The notes under the pieces are model-generated. The model was not told the origin of the DNA. It saw only the letters and a program-made list of their open reading frames with translations, and ran no database searches. From the NCBI RefSeq assembly GCF_900114625.1, contig NZ_FOZL01000001.1, positions 2,236,272-2,268,271 on the forward strand: 32,000 nucleotides of DNA, given 5' to 3'. The position numbers were made by a program, and so were the translations under genes. The stretch comes from Granulicella pectinivorans (lineage in GTDB: Bacteria > Acidobacteriota > Terriglobia > Terriglobales > Acidobacteriaceae). Positions 4,702 through 31,872 of the stretch are shown in pieces; positions within the stretch are counted from its first letter, which is position 1, and each line of letters begins with the position of its first letter.

Positions 4702-4906
4702 GAAACTTCTCTCAACAAAGTCTTCTTCGTTGCCTGTTCTGTCCGTTCTGTGCATTTTTCCGCAGAGGATCTGCTGTCCGTTCGCTCTTCCGGCCCTCCG
4801 TCGCCCAGCGCACATAATCCGTCCGGGGGACAGGGCAGCCCTGTCATCCTGCATCCAATGGACTGGAACGTTCGCACGCAAACCAGAATATCCAGGGCCA
4901 AAACTC

Positions 4907-5755
4907 ATGTATCACCACGTCAAAAAACTCATGTACACCGTTAATATCGGTGAGCCGAACGTCCGCTTTGGCAACATGCTCCTCGAGCAGTTCGGCGGAG
5001 CCAACGGCGAACTCGCCGCCGCCATGCAATACACCATCCAGGGATGGAACTGCGTCGACGATCTCGCCCGCCGCGATCTCCTCCTCGACATCGGCACCGA
5101 AGAGCTCTCTCACCTCGAAGTCGTCGGCGCCCTCATCCGCATGCACCTCGCCCCCCTCAAGACCAACCGCGAAGCCGCCGAGGCCGACCCGCTCGTCACC
5201 ATCGCCGGCGGCGGTGGCGTCGCCCTTTTCGACTCCATGGGCAACGCCTGGACCGCCGATTACCTCAAGATCACCGGCGAACTCGACGTCGACCTCCGCT
5301 CCAACATCGCCGCTGAGGCCCGCGCCAAGATCGTCTACGAGCGCCTCATCGACCACACCGACGACCCCGGCTCCATTGACACCCTGCAGTTCCTGATGAC
5401 TCGTGAGATTACCCACATGAAGGCCTTCTCCGCAGCCCTCGAGTCCCTCGAAAAGAACCCCTTCTCCATCGGTCGACTCAAGCCCACACCCGGTATTGTC
5501 GACGAGTACTTCAACGCCTCCACCGGCGACGGCAACGAGCGGGATCACGATATGCGCGGTCCCTGGACCTCGTCCTTTGGTCTCCACCCCGTCGACTCCG
5601 AGATGGCAGGCGGTAAGGGCCTCTCCGTAGGCGACATCAACGGAGCCATCCCAGGCGAAGATCGCGGTAAGCAGGATTCCGCCCAGAAGGCCCGCACCTC
5701 GGTAGCCGAGAAGTCCATCGGCAAAACCAAGGCCCCTGTCGCAAAAAAGAAGTAG
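4907..5755 (+). CDS. Manganese (non-haem) catalase
   Basis: The in-frame ATG at 4907 gives MYHHVKKLMYTVNIGEPNVRFGNMLLEQFGGANGELAAAMQYTIQGWN...EELSHLEVVGALI, a Mn-catalase/CotJC-type N-terminus. The upstream part of ORF 4553-5755 looks non-coding. Confidence 0.85.
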   Translation: MYHHVKKLMYTVNIGEPNVRFGNMLLEQFGGANGELAAAMQYTIQGWNCVDDLARRDLLLDIGTEELSHLEVVGALIRMHLAPLKTNREAAEADPLVTIAGGGGVALFDSMGNAWTADYLKITGELDVDLRSNIAAEARAKIVYERLIDHTDDPGSIDTLQFLMTREITHMKAFSAALESLEKNPFSIGRLKPTPGIVDEYFNASTGDGNERDHDMRGPWTSSFGLHPVDSEMAGGKGLSVGDINGAIPGEDRGKQDSAQKARTSVAEKSIGKTKAPVAKKK

Positions 5756-7742: not shown

Positions 7743-7996
7743 GGGTATTTCCTCAGTTTAATCCGGTCGAAACGACCCGGCCATGCGTGTGCGTGGTGCG
7801 TTGCCGGGAGTTCAGCCCAGGCCCTTCCCGGCACCATGGACCCAGCTTCTTAGACGAGCAATCCGTTCGAAGGTCCCACCGGCCGGAAACACCGTGCCGT
7901 TGGGAGCGAAGGCTCCCGCTAAGTGATTAGATTCTACTCTCAAGACTGGGGATTCAGGGCTTTACGATGCGATTTGTTGACCGCACGATGCACGCT

Positions 7997-9058
7997 TCAA
8001 GTTACTTTTGGGGCAGTCCTGCCCCCACTCCCCGAAAACCGCAGCTCCCGCACGCTCCGCTCCGCGCGCAAACCCTGTGAAAGCGCCAGCACCGTCCCCG
8101 GCTTCGACGCCACCGTCGCATCCACCCGAAATCCACACAACGCCAGCAGCCGGTCCGTCTCATCGAACGAGAGCCGAGCTCCGGCCTGCCGCGCGGCCGC
8201 CCTTAAAACCCTGCGCCGCGTCGCCCCATCCATCGTCTTCAACCGCTCCACCTCGATCGCCACCCCGGCCTCACCCGGAGCCGTCCCCACGGCCCGCCCG
8301 CCCCCGCGCACCGGCTTCCCTGGCAACAAGACCTGCGGCAACAAACGTCCCAGGTCCGCGGTCCACTTCGCCTCTTCCTCGCGAGCCAGCTCCGCCAGAT
8401 TCGCCAGCGTCCGGTCCAGCGAAGGATTCTCCTCCCGCAGCATCGGAAGCACATGATGCCGCAGCCGGTTCCGCGTATACGCCGGGTCCACGTTGCTCGC
8501 ATCCTCGCGCCAATCCTGCCCCGTCTTCCCCAGCCACGCCTCGACCATCGCCCGCGTTGTCCCCAGCAGGGGCCGCACGATCTTCCCCTTCGCCAGCGAC
8601 ACCACCGGATGCACTCCGCTCAGCCCCTCGGTCCACGCTCCACGCAGCAGTTTCATCAGCACCGTCTCGGCTTGGTCGTCCAGCGTGTGCGCGGTGCAAA
8701 TCACATCCGCCTTGCCGTCGCTCAAATACGCGGAAAACACCCCATACCGCAGCGTCCGGGCCCCTTCTTCGACGGTCTCCCCCGTCCGCGCCACATGTCC
8801 CGGCGTATCCACCGGGGACACCTCCAGAGGAACCCCAAGCCGCTCACACAGCGCCTGAACAAACGCCGCATCCTCCGCGGCCTCGGCCCTCAGCCCATGA
8901 TTCACATGCACCGCCGCCAGCCCGATGCCAAGCGCATTCCGGGGCAGGGAATTGGCCGCATGCAGCCCCGTCAACAGAGCCACGGAGTCCGCCCCGCCCG
9001 AAACCGCCACACAAACCCTCGTCCCCGGAACCAGATACGTACGATCGAAAACCAACAT
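7997..9058 (-). CDS. tilS: tRNA(Ile)-lysidine synthetase
   Basis: 353 aa with the PP-loop VAVSGGADSVAL near the N-terminus. It lies upstream of ftsH, a conserved neighbourhood. Confidence 0.85.
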   Translation of the reverse strand: MLVFDRTYLVPGTRVCVAVSGGADSVALLTGLHAANSLPRNALGIGLAAVHVNHGLRAEAAEDAAFVQALCERLGVPLEVSPVDTPGHVARTGETVEEGARTLRYGVFSAYLSDGKADVICTAHTLDDQAETVLMKLLRGAWTEGLSGVHPVVSLAKGKIVRPLLGTTRAMVEAWLGKTGQDWREDASNVDPAYTRNRLRHHVLPMLREENPSLDRTLANLAELAREEEAKWTADLGRLLPQVLLPGKPVRGGGRAVGTAPGEAGVAIEVERLKTMDGATRRRVLRAAARQAGARLSFDETDRLLALCGFRVDATVASKPGTVLALSQGLRAERSVRELRFSGSGGRTAPKVT

Positions 9059-9115
9059 GACCTCATCTTAGAACCCGGTCCTGCTGCACGGGGCCGCTGC
9101 CCACGCATCGCGCTC

Positions 9116-10258
9116 TTAGACCCCACCGCTCAAATGCGATCGAAGCTCCTCCGGATGATGGCAATGCGCCATCGCCATCTCCCGTGAGATCCGCCCCGCC
9201 AGCACCATCTCCGCAAGAGACTGGTCCATCGTCACCATCCCCTCGCGGCTCCCCGTCGAGAGCTGCGAGCGAATCTGGTGATCCTGCCCCGTCCGGATCA
9301 GATTCCGGATCGCGTGCGTCGCGACCATCACCTCCACCGCCGGATACACCCCCGTCTTGCCCGCCGCCGGAACCAGTTGCTGCGCTACCACCGCCAGCAG
9401 CGCCAGGGAAAGCTGCTGCCGGATCTGCGACTGACTGTTGCCGGAGAAGCTGTCCAGCAAGCGCGACATGGTCTGCGCCGCATCGTTGGTATGCAGCGAC
9501 GACAAGACCAGATGGCCTGTCTCCGCTGCCGTCAAAGCCGCCGCCATCGTCTCCGTGTCCCTCATCTCGCCAATCAGGATCAGATCCGGATTCTGTCGCA
9601 GCACCGCCCGCACCGCCTGTCCGAAGCTGGGCGTATCCCGCCCCACCTCAATCTGCTCCACAATGGAATTCTTGTTTCCATGCTGGTACTCGATCGGGTC
9701 TTCGATCGTAAGGATGTGGTCCCGCCGCCGCGTGTTCACCCGGTCGACCATCGCTGCCATCGTCGAAGTCTTGCCGCTGCCTGTAGGTCCCGTCACCAGA
9801 ATGAGCCCCTGCTTGCGCTCCATCAGGCGCGCCAGCACCGGGGGCAGATGCAGCGATTCCAGCGTCGGCACCTGCATCGAAAGCAGACGAATGCTCGCCG
9901 CCAGGGTTCCCCGCTGATAGTGCAGATTCGAGCGAAACCTCCCAGTCGTCCCCTGCACAAAGCAGAAGTCCACCGACCTGTCCCGCTCCAACTCTTGCGC
10001 CTGAGCCGCCGAGAGCAGAGGGAGAAGCATCCCCCGCAGTTCCTCCGTGGCAAGCGCCTTGTCGGAGGCCACCGTGAGCGACCCATCGATCCGCAACGTC
10101 ACTGGCGATCCCGCCACCAGCAGAATGTCCGTGGCGCGCCGCTCGGCCGCAAGCTTCAGCAGCGCCGTCAGCGAGCCACTCCGCTCCTTCTTCGCCTTCG
10201 GCTGCACCGCATTCAGCTCATACACCAACTGCGACAGATCGTTCTCATACCCCGCCAT
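9116..10258 (-). CDS. pilT: Type IV pilus retraction (twitching motility) ATPase, PilT family
   Basis: 380 aa with Walker A LVTGPTGSGKTST, ILIGEMRD, and the LVLSSLHTNDA His-box typical of PilT/PilU. Confidence 0.85.
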   Translation of the reverse strand: MAGYENDLSQLVYELNAVQPKAKKERSGSLTALLKLAAERRATDILLVAGSPVTLRIDGSLTVASDKALATEELRGMLLPLLSAAQAQELERDRSVDFCFVQGTTGRFRSNLHYQRGTLAASIRLLSMQVPTLESLHLPPVLARLMERKQGLILVTGPTGSGKTSTMAAMVDRVNTRRRDHILTIEDPIEYQHGNKNSIVEQIEVGRDTPSFGQAVRAVLRQNPDLILIGEMRDTETMAAALTAAETGHLVLSSLHTNDAAQTMSRLLDSFSGNSQSQIRQQLSLALLAVVAQQLVPAAGKTGVYPAVEVMVATHAIRNLIRTGQDHQIRSQLSTGSREGMVTMDQSLAEMVLAGRISREMAMAHCHHPEELRSHLSGGV

Positions 10259-15949: not shown

Positions 15950-16024
15950 GGGCGCATAACTCAGCGGTAGAGTGCCACCTTCACACGGTGGAAGTCGTAG
16001 GTTCGAATCCTGCTGTGCCCACCA
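15950..16024 (+). tRNA. tRNA-Val, anticodon CAC, with encoded CCA
   Basis: Hand-folded cloverleaf: acceptor GGGCGCA/TGTGCCC (one G-U), D stem ACTC/GAGT, anticodon stem CCACC/GGTGG with loop TTCACAC, 5-nt variable loop, T arm GTAGG-TTCGAAT-CCTGC, discriminator A, then CCA. Total 75 nt. Confidence 0.9.
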
Positions 16025-16090: not shown

Positions 16091-17290
16091 CTAAGCTGAA
16101 ATGGCCAATTCTGCCTTTGCGGAATGCAGTCCCAACAGCGAACTGATGCGGCCTTGCGCTACCCGTTTGTCGTTGTCGATTGCCTGGGCATAGACACCCA
16201 AGGTCATCGCCGGAGATGCGTGACGCATGAGTTCCTGAGCCGTCTTGACGGTTTCCCCGTTGGCCAGCAACCACGTTGCGGTTGTTCTCCTGAACGTATG
16301 CCATCCGATACGCTTTAGTATTCCAGCTTCGCGCGCGGCGGGCTGAATCACTTTTTGCAGCACCGTGGATGGCCAGTAGGGTTTCGCGCCCAGGTCGTAC
16401 GGCGATGCGAAAACCCAATCTCCAGGTTTGATGTACGGGGTTTTCTCACGCCAGGACTGTAACGCATGGACGAGAGCAGGCTCCAGCGGAATGGGTCGCT
16501 TAGACGTTTCCGTCTTCGGCTCCCCTGCTATTTGATCGACCAAGGAGCGGCGAATTTGAATCTTGCCGTTCTCAAAGTCAACATCCTCCCACCTTAGACC
16601 GACAAGCTCGCCGCGCCGCAAACCGGTGACGGCTGCCACGACGACCATTGTTCGGGCGTAGTCAGGGAGCAGGCTGAGCAATCTGCCCACTTCCTCCGGC
16701 GTCAGGATATCCGGGGTCTCGCGACGCTTCGCGCTTTGCCTCACCTCTCGGATCGGATTGCGTGTAGCCCACCCGTATCGCAATGCGTGTTGATAGACGA
16801 CACTGAAGACAGCCTTCGTTTTGGACTTGGTGCCATCTGCTTTGTCCAGACCCTCAAGCCAAGCCTCTACACGGAACGCCTTCACGTCTCCAATGCGCTC
16901 GGCTCCCCATCTCGGCAAAATGTAGTCGTCAAGATGCTGACGGTACGTTTCCCGTGTCCTGGGCGTTTTGCCGCGTCCGTCGCAAAGCTCCTTCTCTACG
17001 TAATGCCCAACAACTTCGCGGATGGTCATTGGAATTGTGCTGACGGCTTCGGCGTTGATGTCCAAACGAAGCGCGTCAACAGCCTTACGCGCCGCCGTCT
17101 CCGTCTTGTACTCCTGCACGGTGCCGATGATGCGCTTACGCCTGACGCTCTGCCCATTACCGGATGGCTCGCGCCACCGGTACGTCCAGACATCCGGCCC
17201 GCTGCTTCTAGATTCGGTTGTCAAATAGCCGCGTTGGTATCGCTCTCTGGAGAGCTTGAGGGTTGGAAGTGATGTGAGAGCGTTTGTCAT
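16091..17290 (-). CDS. int: Tyrosine-type site-specific integrase (phage/P4-like family)
   Basis: 399 aa with a catalytic-domain pattern: ...TGLRRGELVGLRWEDVDF... (Arg box), ...GWHTFRRTTATWLLANG... (H-x-x-R), ...LMRHASPAMTLGVYAQ (His and the Tyr nucleophile). The stop is 66 nt from the tRNA. Confidence 0.9.
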   Translation of the reverse strand: MTNALTSLPTLKLSRERYQRGYLTTESRSSGPDVWTYRWREPSGNGQSVRRKRIIGTVQEYKTETAARKAVDALRLDINAEAVSTIPMTIREVVGHYVEKELCDGRGKTPRTRETYRQHLDDYILPRWGAERIGDVKAFRVEAWLEGLDKADGTKSKTKAVFSVVYQHALRYGWATRNPIREVRQSAKRRETPDILTPEEVGRLLSLLPDYARTMVVVAAVTGLRRGELVGLRWEDVDFENGKIQIRRSLVDQIAGEPKTETSKRPIPLEPALVHALQSWREKTPYIKPGDWVFASPYDLGAKPYWPSTVLQKVIQPAAREAGILKRIGWHTFRRTTATWLLANGETVKTAQELMRHASPAMTLGVYAQAIDNDKRVAQGRISSLLGLHSAKAELAISA

Positions 17291-17523
17291 GCTGCCTTCT
17301 CCTGTTCGGTTGGGGCAGTACGACCTGCGTTATCAGTGTATCCATTGCGCGATTCCAGCCAAGTCCTAATCTTGGACGGCAGGAAGACAACGCGGCGGGC
17401 GCTGAGGCGTACACAGGGGATTTTGCCTTCGCGTGCCCATTTTCGGATGGTCTCTGGGTGGAGGGGAAGGATGCCTGATAATTCCTCGGCTGTCAGGGGT
17501 GCTTCGATTGTGGGATTGTCCAC
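17287..17523 (-). CDS. xis: Excisionase / AlpA-type helix-turn-helix DNA-binding protein
   Basis: 78 aa with a GTG start. LTAEELSGILPLHPETIRKWAREGKIPCVRLSARRVVFLPSKIRTWLE matches the Xis/AlpA wHTH layout. Its stop overlaps the int start by 4 nt. Confidence 0.7.
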   Translation of the reverse strand: MDNPTIEAPLTAEELSGILPLHPETIRKWAREGKIPCVRLSARRVVFLPSKIRTWLESRNGYTDNAGRTAPTEQEKAA

Positions 17524-17702
17524 GTTTCAACCTATTGCGCCTGGGCCTTACAGGCTTGCCGCTCGATTGCTTTACGGTGTGCAGTCCATCCTTCTTGGCT
17601 TGCATCATCGCTGGAGAGCAACGAGGTCAGGAGCAGACTGCCCCCGACGGAAGTAGTAAACTGAGCTATTGATCTTAGTTCCAATGCTTGAGGTCGTCCC
17701 AT

Positions 17703-18344
17703 ATGAACAACGCAACGTGCTACGCCTGCGACCAGCCCGCAACCACCAAGGAACACACGCCTCCATATTCGTTCTTCCCTGAAGGGCAGCGGCTGAACCT
17801 TATCACTGTGCCTTCATGTGAGGCGCATAACAATGCGAACTCCAAAGATGTCGAGTATGCGCGAAACGTCATCACCACCATGTTCGGCACGAACGATGTA
17901 GGTCAGCAGCACTTTGCCGATAAAGCACTGCGCTCGTTTGATCGTTCGCCCAAGCTGCTGAATATGACTTTCGCGGATATACGTCCCGTCACGCTGCACG
18001 GTCAGACTGTCGGTGCATTCACCATGCAGACGGACCGCATCGAGGCCGTAATGAATGCTTGCGTCACGGCTCTGCACTTCCGCGATACGAACGAACGCAT
18101 TCCTAACTGGGAAGTCATTCTCCCCAACCTGTCATTCCAGGGCGACACGACGGAAGCTCAGGCGGCGGGTTGGTCTGGATTCCTCTCGATGTTTGGGCAG
18201 GTTCAGTACAACGTAAAGCCAACTGATTCGCCTGATGTGTTTCAGTACGCCATGGCTCAGATTCTAGGAGGCTGGATTTACAACCTGTGTTTCTACAAGG
18301 CGTTCACGGTCTTTGCATTCGCACCGTCTGTATCTCCTGAGTAG
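17703..18344 (+). CDS. HNH (HNH_5-like) endonuclease-domain protein with a ~160-aa unknown C-terminal domain
   Basis: ATG 17703 (GAGG 9 nt upstream) is preferred over the TTG at 17688. The motif spacing is C6-x2-C9 ... E17-H18 ... N32 ... C39-x2-H42-N43 (MNNATCYACDQPATTKEHTPPYSFFPEGQRLNLITVPSCEAHNN). It is the only + strand gene between xis and the long minus-strand operon, and G+C is visibly lower here. Confidence 0.65.
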   Translation: MNNATCYACDQPATTKEHTPPYSFFPEGQRLNLITVPSCEAHNNANSKDVEYARNVITTMFGTNDVGQQHFADKALRSFDRSPKLLNMTFADIRPVTLHGQTVGAFTMQTDRIEAVMNACVTALHFRDTNERIPNWEVILPNLSFQGDTTEAQAAGWSGFLSMFGQVQYNVKPTDSPDVFQYAMAQILGGWIYNLCFYKAFTVFAFAPSVSPE

Positions 18345-18465: not shown

Positions 18466-20319
18466 CTACTCCTCCGGCTCTTCGAGCGCCGGAGACAGCG
18501 GAGCAGCCTGAACATTCTTCCCCGCTTGTTTCCACAACGTCAGCGCCGTATGCCCTGCCTTCGGATTGAACAGCAGCTTATCCGCGATGGCAGATACCGG
18601 AGCCTTCGCAAGTTCGCCTGTATGGAAAGGCAACTTGCCCACCCATTCGGCCAGCCCGCTACCGGTCTCTGGGGTGGCAAGAGCGCCCAACACGTCGTTG
18701 TAATTTTTCAGGCCATCAGATCCGAGCAGCTTCGCGAACGCTCCGGCACCAAACTTGTTGTCGAAGTACGCGGGGAGCTTATTCAGAGCCGTACGGTTGA
18801 TAGAAGCCGTTTCCGCGCCGAAGCTACTGCCGTCTCCGGCACCCTGCAACATCGGGCGTATCCGATTCGCGAGCCACTGATAACGAATTCCCTGGGAGTA
18901 GGTGCGGTTCGCTGCATCCAGTTCTCCAGGCTTCACGACATCGGCGTGCTTATTGAGGAAGGCATCCATCTCGCGCTGGTACTCCGGCAGGTTCGCCTTT
19001 GCAGTAGCCTTATCCGTCTGGCTCGATACGCGGCTCTTGAGGGTGCTCTTCGCGTCGGTGATCTGGTCCTGCAACTCGGTGAAGAGCTTAGGCCGTGGTG
19101 GGACATCTGGAGTCGGGAGCGGCTTATCATCCGCTCCGTAAAGGGTGGGCTGTTTTTCCGCATCCCCGTACTTCTTGTCCCAGGCGGATACCTCTGGCTC
19201 GGCTGCGTCGTCCAGGATGCTATAGGTGTGGGATGCCTCTTTCTTGAGCAGACTCGCGATGTCATCGACAGAGGTCAGCGAAGAGGGTATTCCTGCGGTC
19301 GCCGGGGGCGGGTTCTCCCCACGGACTTTCCGAAGTTCCTTCACGGCATCCAAGGCAGACTGCACGAAGTTCGATTGCGCGGCCTTTCGGGCCGCTGGCG
19401 CTACGACATCATTCACGAAACCCTTCGCGCCCTGCTCAGTCGCGACGGATGACGCCAAGCGGGATGATACGGACTGGGTGGGCAGTTGCGGATTGTTGGA
19501 CGCGACCGGCACATCCTCTCCCGCGATCTTTGCGGAGGACGGCTTGGCGGTGTCTACAGCGCCCTCAGCGGCTTCGCCAAGCGAACTGATAGCCTTACCT
19601 ACCCCGAACGTCAGGAGCGGCCCCAGGATGTCACCGGCGACGGCCCGGTAGTTCTGCGCGTGCAGGTCTTCATCCAGGTTCGATCCAATCTGACGAATAG
19701 CGGGACCCATGAGGGGAATGACCCCGGCAGCATGGGAGTCAAGCGTCCCGGCAAGATCGCCAACGACACCGGATGCGCTGCCCTTGGCAGCGTCGGCCTG
19801 CACGCGGTCCTTGAGGTCGTTGTAGGATTTTGCAAGTCCTTTCACGCTACCCCCGGCTGCACGATCCGCTTTGTATGCGGCAGCGACCTCGTGAACGGGT
19901 TGCATGATGATCGCCTTCGCAGCTTGGACTATAGGATGGTCAGCGGTGAAGGCCTGACCGGTGATGATGTCGGTCGCCAGACTGGTAGCTGCCTTCCAGT
20001 CACCGGCCTTCGCGGTCTCGATCATCTGGTGGTACAAGTCGACGGGGCGCTGCACGGCGTACTTCGCGGACTGCGTTCCGAGGTCTACGATGCCCTTGAG
20101 GCCGGACGTTTCATAGGCGCGGTTTATAAGACCATGCTGCTCGGGCTGAGAGACGGGAGCAGAGTCAAAGACCATGCCGCCGTCGGGTGCCGCGCTAGGT
20201 GATGGCGAAGGCTTGGCTGGTGCAGACGATACCGGGGTTGGAGACGATACAGGAGACGAGTCGAAGACCATTCCTTGTCCGGCTTGCTGGTCCATGTCAG
20301 GTTGATTTGTGTCGAGCAT
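18466..20319 (-). CDS. Large hypothetical protein (617 aa), last gene of the island operon
   Basis: A long ORF with normal coding composition. Its start is coupled to the upstream stop (TAATG at 20317-20321). The N-terminus carries two copies of GMVFDS(S/A)PVS(S/Q)P separated by a Pro/Ser/Ala linker. I recognise no family. Confidence 0.8.
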   Translation of the reverse strand: MLDTNQPDMDQQAGQGMVFDSSPVSSPTPVSSAPAKPSPSPSAAPDGGMVFDSAPVSQPEQHGLINRAYETSGLKGIVDLGTQSAKYAVQRPVDLYHQMIETAKAGDWKAATSLATDIITGQAFTADHPIVQAAKAIIMQPVHEVAAAYKADRAAGGSVKGLAKSYNDLKDRVQADAAKGSASGVVGDLAGTLDSHAAGVIPLMGPAIRQIGSNLDEDLHAQNYRAVAGDILGPLLTFGVGKAISSLGEAAEGAVDTAKPSSAKIAGEDVPVASNNPQLPTQSVSSRLASSVATEQGAKGFVNDVVAPAARKAAQSNFVQSALDAVKELRKVRGENPPPATAGIPSSLTSVDDIASLLKKEASHTYSILDDAAEPEVSAWDKKYGDAEKQPTLYGADDKPLPTPDVPPRPKLFTELQDQITDAKSTLKSRVSSQTDKATAKANLPEYQREMDAFLNKHADVVKPGELDAANRTYSQGIRYQWLANRIRPMLQGAGDGSSFGAETASINRTALNKLPAYFDNKFGAGAFAKLLGSDGLKNYNDVLGALATPETGSGLAEWVGKLPFHTGELAKAPVSAIADKLLFNPKAGHTALTLWKQAGKNVQAAPLSPALEEPEE

Positions 20320-22469
20320 TAGAACTTCACCACTTTCCCATCTGCCGTGCGGTAGCCGAGGATAACGCCGGTCTTCGGATCACGTCCAGGCGTTGCGCCT
20401 ACAGGCACAACACGATCAGGTTGCCCGCTTCCTTGCTGAGGCTGAGACTGGAGACTCGACGCGTTCTGCTGTTGCTGTCTGAAGCTCGCCACGGTCGTAA
20501 GCTGATCTTCATTGGCGTAACGGCCTGCAACATCCTTCAGGCTATCCATCGCGCCCGCGAATTGGTCATTATTCATGCCAGGGAAGATCAGGCTGCCGGA
20601 CTTCTTGAGAATCTCGCTTGAGAATCGGCCTGTGTGCATTTTGGTCACTGCCGACTGTAAAAGGCTCACATTGTCGAGCATCTTCTGGGCCGCCTCGGTG
20701 CCGATGCCGAACGGTGCGAATGCCTTCGCAGAGTTCCCTGACAGAGGGCCGATGAGTCCGGGATTTCTCGCAATCTGTGCCTGAAGATCAGAGCTGATCG
20801 CGAGCACCTGACGGGCCGTGTCTGCGGTCTGTCGCTCCTGGGCAGTAGGTTTGTAGAGCGCTTGCTGATTCTGCGGAACGACGTTCCCACGCGGGTCTAC
20901 CAGCATGGAGTCAGGTGCGTTCTGTAACGTCAGCTTCTCCCCGCTGATCGGGTTGACGCCGGTCTTCATCATTGCCTCTCGGTCAGCGCCGGTCGCAATG
21001 GCATGGGCGCGGGCTTCCGCAGTCGCTTTGGTTATGCTTTCACTTTGCGAGATACGGACGAAGTTGGATGCCGCGCTGAGCTGATCCTTTGAGAATTTCT
21101 GGGGCGCGGCTAAGACGGCCTGGGCCTTCGCCTCGGAGTCGATGATGCTGAACTGCTCGGCACTCTTCTGGTTGGCCGCGAGCTGATCGTGTGCCGCCTC
21201 TAGAACTGACCACCCACCGAACACGGACGCAACGGCGTCAACGTATTTGGCGTCAGGGTTCGGCTGTATCTGACCGGTCTTCGGATCACGCTTCGCTTGG
21301 CCCATCGCCTGAAGTGCAGCGAAGGGGTCTTGGAGATTGGCCGCGTCATGCGAGACGTACGTCTGAAAGCGCTGCATCGCGGTATTCACACCGGGCTTCG
21401 AGAAGTCGATGGACTGAGGAACCTTCGATGCGTACTGGGTACCATCGAGCACGTTACTTAGATCGTGAAGACGCTGAGCTGCCAAATAGTGCGAGGCAAG
21501 CTGCTCATTCGCGTTCACCTTCATCCGCAGCGGGATCGTGAGACCTCCACCGACTTTGGTTCCCTTTGGAAAGCCAGGGACGCCGCCGTCTGCGTAGCGG
21601 TTCCAATCGTCCTGAGTGAGTGCGACCGGAGCGCCGGGGTCCTTGATGATGAGATGAGTTGCCTCCCACCGTTTCGAGCCGTCGGGGTTCGTGATCTCAA
21701 CGCGACCGGCAACGGGACCAAGCTGATCGGTCGGCGATAGCTTCCCGGTCTTCAATGAATCAAGCAACTCCGCTTGGGTCATCGGCGTACCACCGTTGTC
21801 TAGGAGGTCTGGGCTAACGTCCAGAACGCCCGAAGCCCTGTTAATGTCGGTGAGCTTATCGAGCGCGTCCGCACCCCTTGCCTCGGCCTCGCTGGTATTC
21901 AAAATCCCGCGAGAATTGGCTTCGTAGATGGACGCGCGTCTGGCGAGCTGCTGGGACTGGTTTTGAAAATCTTGCTGGGCCTGTTGTTCCTGCTTCTGCT
22001 GCGCTTGCTGTTGCGCCTGCGATACCTGCTGATAACCAGCGGCGGCGGCACGACCCGTAGCTCCGGGGCCGGTGACGGCGAGACCGCCGAGAGCACCCGT
22101 GACAGCCTCCATCGCAATCGCGAGGCCGATGTCGCGGCTGGAAAGGGGGACTTTCGTGCGCGTGGTTGCGCCGGTTGTAGCGTCGATGCTCGTTGTAAAG
22201 CGAGGACCGCCAGCTAGGGTTTCGGCAACAGAGCGAAGAACGCTCGCCTTTTGTATTGCAGGATGCGCTTGGGCCGCAGGCACAGCGGCGGCATTGCTGA
22301 CCACCGCTGCATTGTCCTGTTCGTTTGCGGGCTGAGGCTGGGTAGGCTGCTGCACCGCAACAGTTGCGACAGACTGGTCTTGGGTAGTCTGCTGAGGCTG
22401 CGTATTATCGTCGCCTGTGTCGGGGACGCTGGAGACCGGCTGCTGGTCGTCGGGTGTATCGAATGTCAT
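20319..22469 (-). CDS. Large hypothetical protein (716 aa), Gln-rich
   Basis: I prefer ATG 22469 (AGGAAA upstream; MTFDTPDDQQPVSSVP...). The 51 codons upstream in ORF 20319-22622 are Arg/Pro/Ser-rich and span hairpins. It has a disordered Q/T/P-rich N-terminus, a Gly/Ala-rich hydrophobic stretch (IGLAIAMEAVTGALGGLAVTG) and a poly-Q coil (QAQQQAQQKQEQQAQQDFQNQSQQ). I recognise no family. Confidence 0.8.
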   Translation of the reverse strand: MTFDTPDDQQPVSSVPDTGDDNTQPQQTTQDQSVATVAVQQPTQPQPANEQDNAAVVSNAAAVPAAQAHPAIQKASVLRSVAETLAGGPRFTTSIDATTGATTRTKVPLSSRDIGLAIAMEAVTGALGGLAVTGPGATGRAAAAGYQQVSQAQQQAQQKQEQQAQQDFQNQSQQLARRASIYEANSRGILNTSEAEARGADALDKLTDINRASGVLDVSPDLLDNGGTPMTQAELLDSLKTGKLSPTDQLGPVAGRVEITNPDGSKRWEATHLIIKDPGAPVALTQDDWNRYADGGVPGFPKGTKVGGGLTIPLRMKVNANEQLASHYLAAQRLHDLSNVLDGTQYASKVPQSIDFSKPGVNTAMQRFQTYVSHDAANLQDPFAALQAMGQAKRDPKTGQIQPNPDAKYVDAVASVFGGWSVLEAAHDQLAANQKSAEQFSIIDSEAKAQAVLAAPQKFSKDQLSAASNFVRISQSESITKATAEARAHAIATGADREAMMKTGVNPISGEKLTLQNAPDSMLVDPRGNVVPQNQQALYKPTAQERQTADTARQVLAISSDLQAQIARNPGLIGPLSGNSAKAFAPFGIGTEAAQKMLDNVSLLQSAVTKMHTGRFSSEILKKSGSLIFPGMNNDQFAGAMDSLKDVAGRYANEDQLTTVASFRQQQQNASSLQSQPQQGSGQPDRVVPVGATPGRDPKTGVILGYRTADGKVVKF

Positions 22470-22661: not shown

Positions 22662-23705
22662 TTATCGTGTATCGGACATCGCGGTGAATAACTCAGCGAC
22701 CGTCGGAGCAATTGAGAAGGTCCGTCGGTAATCTTCGGAAGACATGCGGTCAACCTCCCAATTTGAGAAGTCGCGCATCTCGCCGGTGAGTTGATCGCGG
22801 CCTCGATAGACCTTCGGGCCTGATGGCGTAGTGGCGTTTGCCCGTTCTGGTGGGACGGCGAGGTTCACAGGCTCGGGCCGCTCTGCTGGCGGCTGAAGGG
22901 CTGTTTTTTGCTTCAACAACCCAAGGTCACGAAGGCGTACGAATGCCGCACGGATCGTTTCAACGTCGGCAATGAGCACGCCGTTCCTGCGGAGATACCC
23001 CAGAATGACATCGGCATTTTCTAAGGTTCGATAGGCCGCGTATTCAGGCTCACTCGCGAACTGCGCGGCTGCCTTTGCCGTGAACGCCTCGGCGTCCTTC
23101 GTCGGCATGGAGGCCGCACGCATGGCGTAGCTGACCACGAGCTTAGGGTCTGCATCCGCTTGAATCCAGTCAGCCCAGTACGCCTTCTGTTTCTCGCCAC
23201 GTTCGTGTAGCTCTGCTTCTCGCTCGGCCTGCTCTTGAGCGGCTTTGCGTTCTGCTTCGCGTCGTGGACGTTCGGCCTCTCTCTGGGCAGCTTCCTCAGC
23301 TTCACGACGCTCGCGGGCCGCGATGACTTCACGGGCGGTCATCGGGCGGGGTGATGGTGTAGGGGCGTACTTTGTGGGACGCTCCCAACCATCGGTTTCA
23401 GCATCCATGCGTGCGGCTGACGCCTGAAGTTGGGCAGCCTCAAGATCAGCTCGACGCTGGGCGGCGATGCTCTCGGATTCGTTGAGGCGTTGACGTTGCT
23501 CTGTCAGTTTGTTGTGGGTGGACGACATGCACTTGGCCGCGCCGGACATAAGGCGGTCGTGGCTTTCCGTCGTCGAACTGCCGCACGCACACGTCACCTC
23601 GTAGCGAGGCCGTGGATGTCGGGCAACCATGTCGCCAACCTTCAGCGTTCCTACGGTGCGACCCTCAAGATTGATGAGGCCGGGCATTACGCGTGTCGTG
23701 GACAT
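22662..23705 (-). CDS. Hypothetical protein (347 aa) with an N-terminal Cys-cluster (phage-like L.G..vG.L.V...C.CG...C) and an E/R/A-rich coiled coil
   Basis: The ATG at 23705 has GGAGAA 9 nt upstream. An alternative ATG at 23687 would give a TAATG junction with the upstream gene. Residues include ...INLEGRTVGTLKVGDMV...YEVTCACGSSTTESHDRLMSGAAKC..., followed by REAEEAAQREAERPRREAERKAAQEQAEREAE. Confidence 0.7.
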   Translation of the reverse strand: MSTTRVMPGLINLEGRTVGTLKVGDMVARHPRPRYEVTCACGSSTTESHDRLMSGAAKCMSSTHNKLTEQRQRLNESESIAAQRRADLEAAQLQASAARMDAETDGWERPTKYAPTPSPRPMTAREVIAARERREAEEAAQREAERPRREAERKAAQEQAEREAELHERGEKQKAYWADWIQADADPKLVVSYAMRAASMPTKDAEAFTAKAAAQFASEPEYAAYRTLENADVILGYLRRNGVLIADVETIRAAFVRLRDLGLLKQKTALQPPAERPEPVNLAVPPERANATTPSGPKVYRGRDQLTGEMRDFSNWEVDRMSSEDYRRTFSIAPTVAELFTAMSDTR

Positions 23706-23989
23706 AAGTCAGTTCTCCAATGTTTCCCGTCCTGGATTGCAGCCGTAAGCGTGTGCCGAGTCGCAATGAACTCGTCCAGAAGGGTCTTCGGGTCTTCGAT
23801 TGGAAAGCCTGGGCCGTTGTCGTCGCGGTGGTAAGCTCTCGCAATCTCAGCACATCTTCCTTCCACATCGTCAATGAGGAAGGTCGCTCCCTTCGGCTGC
23901 TCGATGAACGTCGCGATGTGAACGGCTGGTCCATACACGTAACGCATGATGGCGCAGACACCCTGATTCCGCGTGCGGTAAAGGCTCAT
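23687..23989 (-). CDS. Hypothetical protein (100 aa)
   Basis: It is linked to both neighbouring genes (ATGA overlap at 23986-23989; its stop overlaps the next gene). I see no motif. Confidence 0.55.
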   Translation of the reverse strand: MSLYRTRNQGVCAIMRYVYGPAVHIATFIEQPKGATFLIDDVEGRCAEIARAYHRDDNGPGFPIEDPKTLLDEFIATRHTLTAAIQDGKHWRTDLCPRHA

Positions 23990-24396
23990 GGTTTCCTCCG
24001 GTGGGCATAGCGATCACGCAGCCAGTAGCGGGAGGGTGCTAAATTTCGGGCGATGTATAAGCGACCGCAGCGAAGAAAAAGCTCTTTCTTCGGAGCAGCG
24101 ACAACCGGTTCGCCAAACGCCAGTTGAAACCAATTTCGTTGCAGGTCCGGTCTACCCTCAAGAGCTTTCTCGGTCGCCTTCTCAATGTCCACGGCGTAGC
24201 CTACGAGGTCGAAGGTGAGCTTCTGGGGTTGGTTGGTTGGTTCGGGGTCGATTTGACTCGCGATGATCGGCGAGAGGCTTCTTATGCGGACGTACTCGCA
24301 AATGACTGCCATGCACGCGTTTTCATAACGCTCAAGCAGGTCACGTTTTGACATGGACGCAGGACGCGCCGGGTCATTGGGTTGTAATGCTTCCAC
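23986..24396 (-). CDS. Hypothetical protein (~136 aa from GTG 24396, or 122 aa from ATG 24354)
   Basis: GTG 24396 is preceded by AGGAGA. The further 83 codons upstream in the ORF-track model (to 24645) are Arg-rich and look untranslated. Confidence 0.55.
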   Translation of the reverse strand: MEALQPNDPARPASMSKRDLLERYENACMAVICEYVRIRSLSPIIASQIDPEPTNQPQKLTFDLVGYAVDIEKATEKALEGRPDLQRNWFQLAFGEPVVAAPKKELFLRCGRLYIARNLAPSRYWLRDRYAHRRKP

Positions 24397-24671
24397 TTCT
24401 CTCCTGATTGGATTTTTGCTGCTACAGCCCAGGGAACACAACGGGCGCGATGCTGCGACCGTCTGATGTGGTCGATTCGTGGCATTGCGAGCGTGGATGA
24501 TATGGAACTGCCCCGGCACGACGACGGAAACGTACCGTGTACGTTCGGCCTTTTGAAGCTCTGTCGTTGGTCGTCGGATACCGATAAGAAGGCCGTAATC
24601 AGGGCGGCGGGTGATTCCCGCTCTGTGCCCCGATTGATGCCTCACACATACATAGAGCGGCGACGATTTTT

Positions 24672-25679
24672 CTAGGCTGCCAAGAGCGTTTGTTCACAGG
24701 TCTCCGCGTCGTAAACCTCGTCCGCACGAAAGGGACCGGCACGGCGTAACTCGCGTTCAAGATCAGCGTAGGTCCAGGGCAGGTCGCGGATGACAATCGG
24801 ATTGTGATATTGCTCAAGGTCGATGGCCCCTGACCACATTCTCACCTTGCCTTCATCCCCAAGCCCCTCTTTGTACGCGTCGTTTGCGTGCTCATCGCCG
24901 GGACCAAGGACGATGGGACGTGGTGAGCATTTTCCCTGCTCTCGCAAATATGCAAGCTCAGATTCGGTTTCTTCGATTCCGTCAGTTGATGCGGGTTTTG
25001 GGGCGTCGCCCTTCTTTAGAAGCCGGATTCGTTCCGTCTTCCAGGCGCGTGCCCGCCAGTACGCCCTCCAATGGAGTTCGGCTCTAAGGCCTTCCGTATC
25101 TGCAAACTTTGCCGCATGGTCCGCTACATACATCCACATCTCTGAGAACAACTGGTCTTCCACATCGTCAATGCAGCCTTCCAGGTCACGACAGTCCACC
25201 AGTACGCGCCGGATACCGGACCTGACTGCTGCGGCATGAACCTTGATCCAAGTTGCCAATGCTTCGATGCCCTCAGTTTCTCGGCGGGCAATAACCTGCG
25301 TCCACACCTGGAGTGCGTCGGCATCATTCACGCAGCCTGCGAACTCCGGCAGCCGAAGGAACAGCATGGTGTCAAGAACATCGCGTTCACGTCCACTCAG
25401 TATCTGACGCAGTTTTACGACGAGTTGAGCTTGCCGCGATGCCCAGGCAACAGCCTCAGCTTGGAACAGCCTGGCGTATGCAACACCTTTCGGATAGCGA
25501 TGGTCCTGAAGGCGCTCGAAGAGCTGTCCAACGATGCGCTGCACATCGAACACTGTTGTTCCAGATACTCCAAGAATCGCTTCCTTCAGCGCGGCTTGTA
25601 CCTTCTCCGCATGGAACCTTTCTCGCGCCCGCTTGAGGTCTTTGTCGTATTTCTTCTTTTTCTTGATTTCGTCCGTCAT
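24672..25679 (-). CDS. Hypothetical protein (335 aa)
   Basis: A long ORF with coding-like composition, starting 16 nt after the upstream stop. The segment DDVEDQLFSEMWMYVADHAAKF...LHWRAYWRARAWKTERIR faintly resembles sigma-70 region 2, but I cannot support that call. Confidence 0.7.
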   Translation of the reverse strand: MTDEIKKKKKYDKDLKRARERFHAEKVQAALKEAILGVSGTTVFDVQRIVGQLFERLQDHRYPKGVAYARLFQAEAVAWASRQAQLVVKLRQILSGRERDVLDTMLFLRLPEFAGCVNDADALQVWTQVIARRETEGIEALATWIKVHAAAVRSGIRRVLVDCRDLEGCIDDVEDQLFSEMWMYVADHAAKFADTEGLRAELHWRAYWRARAWKTERIRLLKKGDAPKPASTDGIEETESELAYLREQGKCSPRPIVLGPGDEHANDAYKEGLGDEGKVRMWSGAIDLEQYHNPIVIRDLPWTYADLERELRRAGPFRADEVYDAETCEQTLLAA

Positions 25680-25695: not shown

Positions 25696-26136
25696 CTACT
25701 GCCGCGTAGCGTTATGCTCAGCGAGGATCGCGTTTACATCGCTGATGGTCGTCTCGGTCGTAACGTTCCCTGAGCGGAGACCCCCTTCGGCTATGTCGCG
25801 ATAGTGGTTTGGTGTGGATGCATAGGTGGCTTCCAGATGCGAGGTCACCCCCTCGGAGAGGGGTTGTTCGTGGTTCATGTTTCCCTTTCTGAGAGCAGGT
25901 GCTCTCATCTCTTCGTCAAGCAGGTTGAACAGCAGTTTTGTTACATACCGATACGCTCGGTCCGAATCTGTACCTGTACGGTGGAACTTCGCGGCGGCCT
26001 TCATGATCGCTTTCTCAAGAAGCTCGTCATCGAATCTGAGACACCATCTGATGAACTGTGCCAGCTCCGGCGGCGGGACATCTGAAACCGCTTTCCAAAG
26101 AGCTTGAAACTTTGTAGCTCTATCCGATACAAGCAT
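25696..26136 (-). CDS. Hypothetical protein (146 aa)
   Basis: The ATG at 26136 is preceded by AGGAGA, and the gene overlaps the upstream stop by 17 nt. The ORF-track start at 26292 would overlap the Rep-like gene by 173 nt. Confidence 0.6.
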   Translation of the reverse strand: MLVSDRATKFQALWKAVSDVPPPELAQFIRWCLRFDDELLEKAIMKAAAKFHRTGTDSDRAYRYVTKLLFNLLDEEMRAPALRKGNMNHEQPLSEGVTSHLEATYASTPNHYRDIAEGGLRSGNVTTETTISDVNAILAEHNATRQ

Positions 26137-27022
26137 TGGTGATCTCCTGTAGTCCGTGCTGAGTGCCTGCGCCCATGTAAGCCCGAATCGCGGTGAGATC
26201 GAACTCCGGCTCCTTCCAAAGCTGAAAGCTCCGGAGAGCACATAGCTTTGCTGAGTCACCTGAGCGGGAACACGCGAAACATTTCCAGGCATCGGCTGTG
26301 TCGGTCGCGGTTACTCTGAAGGTTCGGTCGGGGTTTAGACATAACGGGCAAGTGAGCCGCATTCCGCTGTCTGCGGTGAATCCGTGGACATAATCGAGCT
26401 GAGGCTTCAGCGCGAGACGATATCGAGTCAGCACATCCAGTTCGTTGACCCGGTTGCGGAAGAACCAGCCGAGATCGTTGAGGGATGCACCTGACGCTAC
26501 GTCGAGCAGTTGGATCAATGTTCCGTGAGTCCATCGGGAACCTGCTTCCCTCAGCGACTTCGTTTTGAGGATGCCTTTATTCGCGAGTTCTGCGAGGGCT
26601 GCCCCCACTGCTTGACGGCTGACTCGCGCCACTTTCGCCAGCTTATCTCGACGACCCTCCCACGAGAAATACGGTGCTCGCTGGTGCTTAGCCGAGGCAT
26701 ACAACGCAATGCAGACTCTCAGCTCGGCCAACGACAATTCATCCCACGGTAAGTGTGTCGGAATCTCCGCAAGCTTGTTCGCGGGGATGGCGGTAGCTTC
26801 GGGAGTGCCTTTGTCATCCAGGGATACAAGCTCCCTCTGGGCCAACTCCGCTAGTGTCTCGCGCCGCCTGCGGTGGGTGTACGGTGTTCCGCGTTGCAGG
26901 CTATTCAGCGCGAATGCGCCGCCATACAGACGCAGCAACTCCAGCACCGAAGCACGGGAATGCAAGTGCAAGATATCCGTGCTCAACTTCAAGTAGGGGA
27001 TGCCTAGTTCAAAGAGTTTCAT
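26120..27022 (-). CDS. Replication-initiator-like protein: winged-helix HTH plus a C-terminal CHC2-type (primase-like) zinc finger. It has no catalytic primase or helicase domain.
   Basis: The wHTH-like segment is LAKVARVSRQAVGAALAELANKGIL. The C-terminal CPLCLNPDRTFRVTATDTADAWKCFACSRSGDSAKL parallels the DnaG/P4 zf-CHC2 pattern CPFH..ktPSf.v......y.CFgCg..GD. It is the first gene of the operon, downstream of the iterons. Confidence 0.7.
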   Translation of the reverse strand: MKLFELGIPYLKLSTDILHLHSRASVLELLRLYGGAFALNSLQRGTPYTHRRRRETLAELAQRELVSLDDKGTPEATAIPANKLAEIPTHLPWDELSLAELRVCIALYASAKHQRAPYFSWEGRRDKLAKVARVSRQAVGAALAELANKGILKTKSLREAGSRWTHGTLIQLLDVASGASLNDLGWFFRNRVNELDVLTRYRLALKPQLDYVHGFTADSGMRLTCPLCLNPDRTFRVTATDTADAWKCFACSRSGDSAKLCALRSFQLWKEPEFDLTAIRAYMGAGTQHGLQEITNACIG

Positions 27023-29091: not shown

Positions 29092-29112
29092 TTATTGTAC
29101 GGAGGCAGGACG

Positions 29113-29679
29113 ATGACAGCAGCAAAAGGCGGGCAGAGGGTTGGCTATATCAGAGTGAGCAGCGCGGACCAGAACACGGCACGGCAGCTAGATGGCGTTG
29201 ACTTAGACGAGCGGTTCGAGGATAAAGCGTCCGGCGCAAGCACTAACCGGCCCCAGCTCCAGGCTGCACTCAGGCATGTCCGCAAGGGTGATGTGCTGGT
29301 TGTCCACTCAATGGACCGCCTTGCCCGTTCCCTCGCCGATCTGCTGGCGCTCGTCAAAGAACTGACCGGGCGTGGCGTGACTGTAGAGTTCGTGAAGGAG
29401 GCCCAGACGTTCACCGGCGACGACACTCCCATCGCGAAGATGATGCTCGGCGTGATGGGGAGTGCTGCTGAGTTCGAGCGCGACATGATTCGACAGCGCC
29501 AGCGTGAGGGAATCACAGCGGCGAAGGCACGTGGCAAGCACTTGGGCCGCGCCGCGATACTGAAACCCGCCCAAGTGAAGGAGTTACGGAACCGTGTGGC
29601 TGCCGGTGAGGATAAGGCCACCATCGCCCAAGCGTTCGGCATCAGTCGCGCTAGCGTCTACAACTACGCGGCGTCCTGA
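29113..29679 (+). CDS. Small serine recombinase (resolvase/invertase family)
   Basis: The ATG at 29113 has GGAGG 7 nt upstream. The catalytic region VGYIRVSSADQNTARQ carries the Ser nucleophile, followed by DVLVVHSMDRLARS, the E-helix AEFERDMIRQRQREGI, and a C-terminal HTH TIAQAFGISRASVYNY. Confidence 0.9.
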   Translation: MTAAKGGQRVGYIRVSSADQNTARQLDGVDLDERFEDKASGASTNRPQLQAALRHVRKGDVLVVHSMDRLARSLADLLALVKELTGRGVTVEFVKEAQTFTGDDTPIAKMMLGVMGSAAEFERDMIRQRQREGITAAKARGKHLGRAAILKPAQVKELRNRVAAGEDKATIAQAFGISRASVYNYAAS

Positions 29680-30909: not shown

Positions 30910-31872
30910 TTATTTCGACGGGTTTCTGCCTGTTGCCGCCGAGAGTCGTTTAGTCAACAACTCTCTCAATTGGGAAAGGTTCTCGTACTCAGGGCAGTTG
31001 CGGTAAGCAAGATCGAAGTGAACATAGGTGTCTTTTTTTCGATAGAGCATCGGTGCCTTCCCGATGGCGTGCGCATAACCTATTTCGTAGTAGACACTAG
31101 GCCGCTCATGAGTCAGGTCTGCAAACAGATGTTCAGAATCCTGTATCTGCTGGATGATGCGCTCTGTTATCCCGTCAGAGTGTTCGAGGTCATCGGCCCG
31201 AACAGCGGTTATGCCGAAGGTCTTGAACACATCGACTACTGTGTCACGGACGTCCTTCAATTCTGGAAGCTGAGGGTTGATGCGCATCATGATAAAAGCT
31301 GTGCCGGGCCGGTACGTCTTGAGGTTCGTTGATGTAGCGGTACCAGCCGTCGCGGTCTCATTGCGGGCACCGAGCACTTGCAATAACTCGAACGTGCCGT
31401 CCACGGCTTCGATGAATTCGCTACGGCACACATCTACTGGGACATCGGTTTCCGACTGCCCCGGCGGGTCTGACCCGATGTAGCTACCTTCATCGTGGTG
31501 GATGTACACGCCCCAGGAATTGAATTTACGGAGCCTCATAGACGCCGCTGCTCGTTTGGAACTTTGACCGAGTGCTATAAGGTCTGCTCTATCAACGAGC
31601 ACGGCCCGCTGTGCAACCGAGGCTATATCGGCCATGACCTGCCGAGCTTCGCCCCGAAGTTGCAAGCCTCTCTGTTTGTAGCCCTCAGAAAGAAGCGCCC
31701 AATAATCAGGGTCCGGCATCTGAGATTGTTGCCAACTCAAAAAGCTAACCTCTGGGGGCGCAATGGAGGCGTCCTTTAGAGCACGCTCAGCATGGGTAAG
31801 GAATTCGAGACCTTGATCTCTCAGGGTCGTCAATTTGGTTCTGAGCTGCATCACTGTTTCGTCGATTGCCAT
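30910..31872 (-). CDS. Two-domain protein: unknown N-terminal ~185 aa plus a C-terminal nucleoside 2-deoxyribosyltransferase-like / TIR-like Rossmannoid domain
   Basis: Residues ~188-310 read GTAFIMMRINPQLPELKDVRDTVVDVFKTFGITAVRADDLEHSDGITERIIQQIQDSEHLFADLTHERPSVYYEIGYAHAIGKAPMLY. This gives a beta1 hydrophobic strand, an ...aDlt...p.V.yEiGyAhA.GK block, and the conserved Glu (E263, codon 31084-31086) that is the catalytic nucleophile position in NDT-fold enzymes. Confidence 0.7.
   Translation of the reverse strand: MAIDETVMQLRTKLTTLRDQGLEFLTHAERALKDASIAPPEVSFLSWQQSQMPDPDYWALLSEGYKQRGLQLRGEARQVMADIASVAQRAVLVDRADLIALGQSSKRAAASMRLRKFNSWGVYIHHDEGSYIGSDPPGQSETDVPVDVCRSEFIEAVDGTFELLQVLGARNETATAGTATSTNLKTYRPGTAFIMMRINPQLPELKDVRDTVVDVFKTFGITAVRADDLEHSDGITERIIQQIQDSEHLFADLTHERPSVYYEIGYAHAIGKAPMLYRKKDTYVHFDLAYRNCPEYENLSQLRELLTKRLSAATGRNPSK

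Follow-up and report, generated by a model that had tools for sequence, protein, structure and literature searches.

A paired N-terminal peptide motif in the second of two candidate phage ejection proteins on an integrative element of Granulicella pectinivorans

Ejection proteins, polyvalent proteins and N-terminal capsid-targeting peptides are already known from phages. The extended N-terminal stretch of T7 gp16 tapes gp15 subunits together and is called a 'molecular tape', and a swap of the lysin domain between gp15 and gp16 homologues has been described (PMC8954989). The cores of T7 and PhiM1 are built of a tetrameric protein on an octameric one, with one subunit facing two (PMC11440229). 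How ejection proteins are recruited into heads, and how they find one another after passing unfolded through the tail, is poorly understood. Here we describe two overlapping genes in a 32,000-nucleotide stretch of the Granulicella pectinivorans chromosome (contig NZ_FOZL01000001.1, positions 2,236,272 to 2,268,271 of the forward strand; 'the window'), which lie on an integrative element at a tRNA-Val gene and encode proteins of 716 and 617 amino acids (aa). The 617-aa protein begins with a disordered leader that holds two copies of one short motif. We propose that the pair are ejection (internal virion) proteins, the second with a bivalent docking leader, a reading that we judge to stand evenly balanced between right and wrong.

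The genes and the segments discussed first are listed by window position.

20319..22469, reverse strand: 716-aa protein, first gene of the pair (open reading frame, ORF)
18466..20319, reverse strand: 617-aa protein, second gene of the pair (ORF)
20317..20321, reverse strand: TAATG stop/start overlap of the two genes, read as TTCTAATGCTC
20239..20274, reverse strand: motif copy 1, GMVFDSSPVSSP, aa 16-27 of the 617-aa protein (sequence and repeat scan)
20143..20178, reverse strand: motif copy 2, GMVFDSAPVSQP, aa 48-59 of the 617-aa protein (sequence and repeat scan)
22422..22469, reverse strand: N-terminus of the 716-aa protein, MTFDTPDDQQPVSSVP, with the pattern M-x-[FIL]-D ... V[ST]N-x-P (family comparison)
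22293..22301, reverse strand: V-S-N at aa 57-59 of the 716-aa protein (the second such motif), 12 residues ahead of the folded core
22068..22130, reverse strand: hydrophobic Gly/Ala helix, IGLAIAMEAVTGALGGLAVTG, aa 114-134 of the 716-aa protein (Kyte-Doolittle mean 1.78)

An earlier note on this DNA, made without database searches, had placed the two ORFs, their TAATG overlap and the motifs, and re-reading of the sequence bore out all of these positions; its word 'giant' overstates proteins of 617 and 716 aa. The overlap points to translational coupling of the two genes, and in most related loci the second gene begins 0 to 15 nucleotides from the stop of the first. The 716-aa and 617-aa proteins are identical in sequence to SAMN05421771_1846 and SAMN05421771_1845, respectively. 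They are rich in Ala, Gln and Gly, as had been noted (A 14-15% and G 8% in both, Q 10% in the 716-aa protein), and otherwise dissimilar, with no homology detectable between the two families by profile-profile comparison (hhalign, probability 0.1%). Public annotation of SAMN05421771_1845 starts at M49 and gives 569 aa; it omits the first 48 codons (20175-20319, reverse strand) and with them motif copy 1, a point of practical consequence for anyone working from the public gene. Both the TAATG overlap and the family's two-copy layout favour the 617-aa start, and with it the view that the public start is placed 48 codons too late.

The two copies of the window motif, GMVFDS-x-PVS, stand 32 residues apart in a leader (aa 1-89) that is rich in Pro, Ser and Gln, of low complexity and disordered by AlphaFold2 (AF2) prediction; they are seen in context in QGMVFDSSPVSSP (around aa 16-27) and GGMVFDSAPVSQP (around aa 48-59). 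The best 9-mer repeat between them scores 43 (BLOSUM), and 2000 composition-preserving shuffles of partner leaders gave a mean of 21.8 (standard deviation 3.3) and a maximum of 40. The internal pair is clearly far above the level of chance, and the two copies first noticed at this N-terminus stand. The same codon is used at only 2 of the 7 identical residues, and the window copies are therefore not a fresh duplication.

Genes following a 716-family gene were taken from 15 viral, 7 genome and 68 metagenome loci and from the window (related loci and family proteins are given below by L and P numbers). Two tandem copies of a short N-terminal motif are present in all 40 distinct partner genes, with scores of 27-53 against a 99th percentile of 31 for shuffles. 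A wider scan of the 617 family covered the whole length of 149 proteins, namely the 40 partners and 109 full-length representatives from a profile search; the best internal repeat fell inside the first 130 aa in 110 of them and elsewhere in 12, and 27 had no repeat above threshold. Exactly two copies were found in 107 of the 110 proteins with an N-terminal repeat. The first copy has its median start at residue 8, and the copies are spaced by a median of 26 residues (range 11-76).

The sequence of the motif varies by locus (GMTFDAAPV, DIFDQLA, LDFSKAQPI, PWQVVSETP, PPPPPGF, YSTPIPQGAT, IPQGATIGD, DFVDNPNY and LNDTNVVAV are examples), and despite these differences from lineage to lineage the two copies within one protein are nearly alike. 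Mean identity between copies is 7.2 of 9 residues, and that between the 9 residues after each copy is 1.9. Identical codons are used at 135 of 278 identical residues of copy pairs, where 93.7 would be expected if the codons were independent. Because synonymous sites and flanks have diverged while the peptide has been kept, both copies have evidently been under purifying selection on the peptide, and have not been recently duplicated. What homologues keep is the architecture of two copies, and the earlier note's proposal, which a motif not conserved in homologues was to count against, survives in this form. Across this large protein family the two-copy leader is a conserved trait that seems not to have been described before.

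For the 716 family at least 139 homologues were counted; none has a name, and every one comes from an Acidobacteria genome or from a soil or peat metagenome. The AF2 model of the 716-aa protein (mean predicted local distance difference test score, pLDDT, 79.5) shows a disordered segment, aa 1-67, and a multi-domain helix/strand fold. The hydrophobic Gly/Ala stretch described earlier for this protein is the single helix at aa 114-134, modelled as a helix at aa 111-131, and its residues are nearly invariant in the family alignment (A1); the 617-aa protein has no hydrophobic helix (Kyte-Doolittle threshold 1.4, 19 residues). Fifteen IMG/VR viral contigs, 21-99 kb in length, gave distant 716 relatives in an alignment-based scan. 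They are 820-975 aa long and have in common with the 716-aa protein a core of ~330 residues after the disordered N-terminus. An SLT lytic transglycosylase domain is inserted after this core in L001, L002, L008, L012 and L015 (Pfam, E = 5e-15 to 7e-30), and these SLT-bearing relatives match phrog_342, 'internal virion protein with endolysin domain', and also the PHROG 'lytic tail protein'.

The 617 family has 11 close homologues, to which a second word-indexed search, made with the 617 alignment, could add none. Profile searching among 1.84 billion representative proteins widened the family to 151 representative clusters, the lowest E-values being about 1e-260. One of its proteins (P0144) carries an SLT domain after the 617-like module. 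Many relatives (among P0152-P0202) are 1200-1900 aa long and have the twin leader and the 617-like module at their N-terminus, followed by GNAT, DUF3293, DUF7178 and ART-PolyVal domains; the giants in which these domains were matched measure 1350-1870 aa. Effector domains of this kind are assigned to polyvalent proteins, which are predicted to be packaged in the head and injected, in the passages of Iyer et al. (2017, PMC5512222) that concern them. Neither window protein matches any family in Pfam, PHROG or PADLOC, which were searched with the pair and eight neighbouring proteins, and both families are without a name in the libraries used. The likeness to ejected or internal virion 'pilot' proteins, offered earlier only as an analogy, is now backed by homology to SLT- and effector-bearing phage relatives.

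The surroundings of these relatives are phage-like. On viral contigs the genes run in a row from tail-fibre-like genes through a ~930-aa protein, small genes, a ~250-aa protein and the 716-type protein to a second large protein, and then to endolysin-like, holin-like and exonuclease genes; the three-protein row at its centre measures about 250, about 800-970 and about 700-1050 aa. One 617-family protein (P0009, locus L091) stands in a row of this phage type, after proteins of 243 and 802 aa. A walk along one viral contig toward the head genes crossed 2.8 kb more, with fibre-like genes. The relatives are thus found as consecutive tail-proximal genes, and the window pair is found in a capsid-less element. 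Both families are probably part of a tail and ejection module in uncultivated Acidobacteria phages.

On this basis the pair would be the second and third components of a podovirus-type ejection protein set carried on the tRNA-Val element. The 716-aa protein would be the counterpart of the protein in the gp15 position (the octameric ejection protein), without the lytic transglycosylase insert of the larger versions, and the 617-aa protein the counterpart of that in the gp16 position (the tetrameric ejection protein). We infer presence in the virion, ejection into the cell and a docking function. The disordered leader would serve as a bivalent docking peptide that presents two equivalent motifs. 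The hydrophobic and acidic core of each would enter a pocket of the same type, on two like subunits within an oligomeric partner; a flexible leader with a matched pair of peptides suggests a partner that offers two equivalent sites. Docking would place the 617-aa protein in the virion core, or would staple the periplasmic channel after ejection. The N-terminus of the 716-aa protein (MTFD...PVSSVP) would be that family's own leader and not a cognate third copy. Structural docking is favoured because of the gp16 tape on gp15 and of the tetramer-on-octamer core, whose 1:2 interface would need two peptides per chain, and the leader would fit such an interface by analogy. The identity proposed for the pair would then be one of homology to uncharacterised phage proteins and analogy with T7, and not of demonstrated membership.

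Several results weigh against this proposal. The window element lacks the ~250-aa first component that is present in its closest relative, and Pfam finds no SLT or effector domain in either window protein. No relative of either protein was found among cultured phages (tblastn, 50,697 records), and the morphology of the related phages is therefore inferred from gene order alone. Solved ejection proteins gave no sequence or fold match, and profile searches of the PDB found nothing. By Foldseek, the best PDB match of the 716-aa model is unrelated (E = 0.2), the nearest relevant one is the pre-ejectosome of cyanophage A4 (E = 1.4), and the best BFVD match is unnamed (E = 0.025); the 617-aa model is poor (pLDDT 55.9) and unfit for Foldseek. 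Three copies of the motif in place of two are found in 3 of the 110 proteins with an N-terminal repeat. Loci L044 and L045 differ in motif class (LDFSKA and GMTFDSAPV, respectively), with upstream proteins and bodies 55-75% similar, and the motif class does not covary with the protein in the gp14 position. Given such class switches and the lack of covariation with the gp14-position protein, the idea that the leader binds its neighbour in cis is unsupported, and the partner may lie in trans.

Other comparisons bear on what the leader might bind. Motif similarity correlates weakly with how alike the upstream 716-type cores are (Mantel rho 0.18, p = 5e-4), and slightly less with how alike the proteins' own bodies are (Mantel rho 0.11, p = 0.01). 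Between the window and L023 the similarities are 0.82 for the motif, 0.68 for the upstream protein and 0.00 for the body, the motif having been kept with the upstream gene and the body replaced; L016 compared with L026 and L024 compared with the window give a like pattern. The bodies of the L044 and L045 proteins are 71% identical despite their different motifs. By inspection, motif class did not covary with the third gene in the small elements. The leader thus appears to behave as a fast-evolving cassette, and its partner could be the 716-type protein by way of a small and fast-changing surface, a head component outside the fetched loci, a component of a helper phage, or a host protein. A reading of the QLDFS and DIFDQL classes as beta-clamp-binding motifs was dropped, most classes being unlike that motif.

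The last of these candidates leads to a rival account, which we consider unlikely: that the twin motif is aimed at a host envelope or cytoplasmic factor, as a bivalent motif in an ejected leader that works like the TonB, TolB and OmpF boxes in the disordered N-termini of colicins, each motif class being directed at a different pocket of the host. The set of motif classes is limited (GM[TV]FD..P, DIFDQ[LV]A, LDFSKAQP, WQVV..TP, PPPPPG[FY], YSTPIPQGAT, [IV]P.GAT[IF]G and others), these classes recur on unrelated bodies and with unrelated upstream proteins, and there is no covariation with any neighbour gene examined. The leader is disordered and at the extreme N-terminus, as a host-directed peptide might be, and several motifs are strand-like with alternating hydrophobic residues (e.g. 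NDTNVVAV), which we take to be reminiscent of TonB boxes. Two identical copies are nonetheless foreign to known Ton or Tol boxes, no tool matched any known colicin-type box, and close elements with presumably close hosts, such as L044 and L045, differ strongly in motif, which one would not expect if the host target were conserved. A second account, decidedly unlikely, is nearer to the earlier note, which had seen three copies of one linear motif on the two proteins and hence a shared docking, packaging, secretion or processing signal; a single N-terminal signal common to both proteins would be read by a packaging, secretion or processing machine, as in T4, which has N-terminal capsid-targeting peptides (PMC9026906). 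The N-terminus of the 716-aa protein does align with the motif (MTFDT..PVSS with MVFDS.PVSS), at a gapped local score of 25.5 that needs a 4-residue gap; shuffles of the whole disordered region average 20.7 (p = 0.07), and p falls to 0.01 when the comparison is limited, post hoc, to the first 20 residues. Starts of the form M-x(0-3)-[FIL]-D are found in 30 of 69 full-length 716-family members, and that of P0078, MPFDDSPTAQPSQP, matches the window motif better than the window's own 716-aa N-terminus does; some 617-family proteins also start directly with the motif (MTFDAAPVS in P0162). These starts, however, occur whatever the partner's motif class, and 716-family N-termini of the MP[FIL]D type pair alike with DIFDQLA, LDFSKA, WQVV and PPPPPGY partners. 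The 716 N-terminus shows no cognate covariation with its own partner's motif (35 pairs; 23.4 against 22.8 permuted, p = 0.15), scored ungapped or gapped, neither being significant, and no extra copy of the motif was found in other ORFs of 40 loci of roughly 20 kb each. The 716 family has features of its own here: V[ST]N occurs 72 times in its disordered N-termini against 5.1 expected by shuffling (14-fold), and of the V[ST]N(x)P pair one member stands around residues 8-20 and the other 5-12 residues ahead of the core, the window versions being MTFD...PVSSVP and VVSNA (aa 56-60). The window resemblance arises because the partner's GM[TV]FD class happens to look like the 716-family N-terminus. 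What had been taken for a third copy is a marginal, weak look-alike and no demonstrated copy; the pair on the 617-aa protein is kept, and a signal shared by both proteins is not supported. Both do have a similar chemistry, a hydrophobic residue followed by Phe, Asp and then Pro, and their pockets may be related in kind.

We regard it as very unlikely that the leader is a propeptide removed in assembly, with the motifs as sites for a maturation protease or a chaperone. Internal proteins of T4 and of giant phages lose N-terminal propeptides by cleavage (PMC9026906, PMC10052503), and L092 and L093 encode an S49/SDH-type protease after the pair, with weak PHROG matches to 'head maturation protease'. 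That gene is nevertheless absent from the window and from most related loci, the motif classes have no cleavage-type consensus in common, and a single cleavage needs no two equivalent copies. Most improbable of all, in our estimate, are tape-measure or tail-length proteins with a periodic motif, or neutral slippage in low-complexity sequence. SLT domains occur in tape-measure proteins too, the leader is of low complexity, and one BFVD match (E = 1.1) is a tape-measure fragment. Yet the pair has no tape-measure match in Pfam or PHROG, the model of the 716-aa protein is multi-domain helix/strand and not a single long helix, and the related loci hold no tail tube, sheath or chaperone genes. Neutral slippage is excluded because the peptide is conserved while synonymous sites and flanks have diverged, and the copies are exactly two and N-terminal only.

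The proposed ejection pair lies within an integrative element, whose other features in the window are as follows.

15950..16024, forward strand: tRNA-Val, integration site and left end of the element (ARAGORN)
16091..17290, reverse strand: tyrosine integrase (Pfam Phage_integrase, E = 3e-26)
17287..17523, reverse strand: excisionase-like DNA-binding protein (phrog_66, E = 2.6e-9)
22662..23705, reverse strand: Zn-ribbon/coiled-coil protein (family 2), directly upstream of the pair (in 16 of 21 small-element loci; weak HNH PHROG match)
23986..25679, reverse strand: families 3 and 4, two conserved element genes (in 15 and 13 of 21 loci, respectively; no family match)
26120..27022, reverse strand: replication-initiator-like protein (weak phrog_345, O-like, match)
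29095..29679, forward strand: serine resolvase, rightmost gene assignable to the element (Pfam Resolvase, E = 1.3e-38)

The gene order is common to 21 related loci and runs from the resolvase through small genes, the replication initiator and families 4, 3 and 2 to the 716-type and 617-type genes, after which come a third gene that varies (and is often fibre-like) and the integrase. The genes of families 3 and 4 possibly have a regulatory function. The protein of L019 at the position of the replication-initiator-like gene matches phrog_391 (3.7e-6), and a serine resolvase of the same family, position and orientation accompanies the tyrosine integrase in 7 related loci. No match to capsid, portal or terminase was found among the element gene families (Pfam and PHROGs; window and L019). 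The window element is at least 13.7 kb long and reaches at least the resolvase at 29679; a repeat of the tRNA-Val 3' end (attR) was not found within the window. Two relatives of ~18 kb are bounded by such repeats, L020 by 46-bp repeats of a tRNA-Met 3' end (at 948 and 18928) and L019 by 20-bp repeats of a tRNA-Ser 3' end (at 120 and 18258), and the 12-kb metagenome contigs show no terminal overlap (circularity). The closest relative, L092, has extra genes for 121-aa and 249-aa proteins (the latter in the gp14 position) before the pair, shared with large phages, and the S49/SDH-type protease after it (extra genes within 4004-5123 and 8854-10098); the window has none of these three.

The window element is thus small and integrative, with its own integration and replication genes and without a full virion set, as satellites are. 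The ~14-18 kb elements of this kind hold two or three ejection proteins, often a tail fibre, an integrase, a resolvase, a replication initiator and regulators; some of the capsid-less elements carry a tail fibre (L094) or a 'virion structural protein' (L019). It is possible, and in our view doubtful, that these capsid-less Acidobacteriaceae elements are a new kind of phage satellite that brings its own entry machinery and borrows the head and tail of a helper, with the hypervariable twin leader as an adaptor into the helper's virion core and the motif classes matching different helpers. As far as we are aware, the genes that known satellites bring are for capsid size, packaging or the capsid, and ejection proteins and tail fibres are not among them.

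Three further observations concern the element and its relatives. A domain of ~110 aa (GGxFQDxxGNxLxNG...) is encoded by a stand-alone gene in large phages (L009, 4480-4818) and in L016 (8990-9322), and in L094, a small element, the same domain is the N-terminal part of a tail-fibre protein of 1018 aa (7844-8150). A 218-aa ORF with no family match (17688-18344, forward strand) lies between excisionase and pair, at the place taken in related elements by a fibre-like gene; its pattern CYAC...EH...CEAHNN is suggestive of the Cys/His arrangement of an HNH-type nuclease. A 320-aa protein (30910-31872, reverse strand) matches a PADLOC TIR-effector model (E = 1.2e-8) and, weakly, a Pfam nucleoside 2-deoxyribosyltransferase; its gene possibly serves in defence and lies on the right edge of the element or past it.

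The always-paired, transplantable leader offers a handle on ejection-protein recruitment and assembly: it can be mutated, swapped between lineages or used as bait, and checked against the 4:8 subunit mismatch seen by cryo-electron microscopy. It also marks a large unnamed family (the 151 representative clusters above) that includes effector-carrying giants. Capsid-less integrative elements with entry proteins in soil Acidobacteria could, if the satellite proposal is true, be satellites of a new type.

The known phage satellites (P4-like elements, phage-inducible chromosomal islands (PICIs) and capsid-forming PICIs) resemble the window element in being small and tRNA-integrated, with an integrase, an excisionase and a replication initiator, and in having no full virion gene set; related copies of the element are att-bounded at ~18 kb. 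The T4 capsid-targeting sequence (of IPI-III and Alt) is likewise a short N-terminal peptide on internal virion proteins, where it directs their incorporation. It differs in being single-copy, in standing on several proteins of one phage and in being cleaved off, whereas the twin leader has two copies on one protein and none on other ORFs. The phage polyvalent proteins share the ART-PolyVal, GNAT, DUF3293 and DUF7178 domains of the large 617 relatives, and the window 617-aa protein differs as the N-terminal carrier module only, without an effector domain; the matching passages of the polyvalent-protein account (PMC5512222) describe neither the 617-like module nor the twin leader.

The T7-type ejectosome is different in that it has no detectable sequence or fold similarity to the window pair and in that the window element is limited to the second and third genes, neither with a lysin domain. 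The literature searched holds no description of a tandem, lineage-variable and internally matched leader pair, and none of a tandem lineage-variable N-terminal peptide pair for T7, P22 or PhiM1 in particular. The likenesses are in organisation. T7 gp14/gp15/gp16 (EP3 and the octameric and tetrameric ejection proteins; PhiM1 gp50/gp49/gp48) and the related phages described here alike have three consecutive genes of increasing size by the tail genes and a lytic transglycosylase on the second or third protein according to lineage; of the window pair, the 716-aa protein has a hydrophobic helix. The third protein can in both be extended by large C-terminal modules, and the extended N-terminal segment of gp16 is known to bind the second protein.

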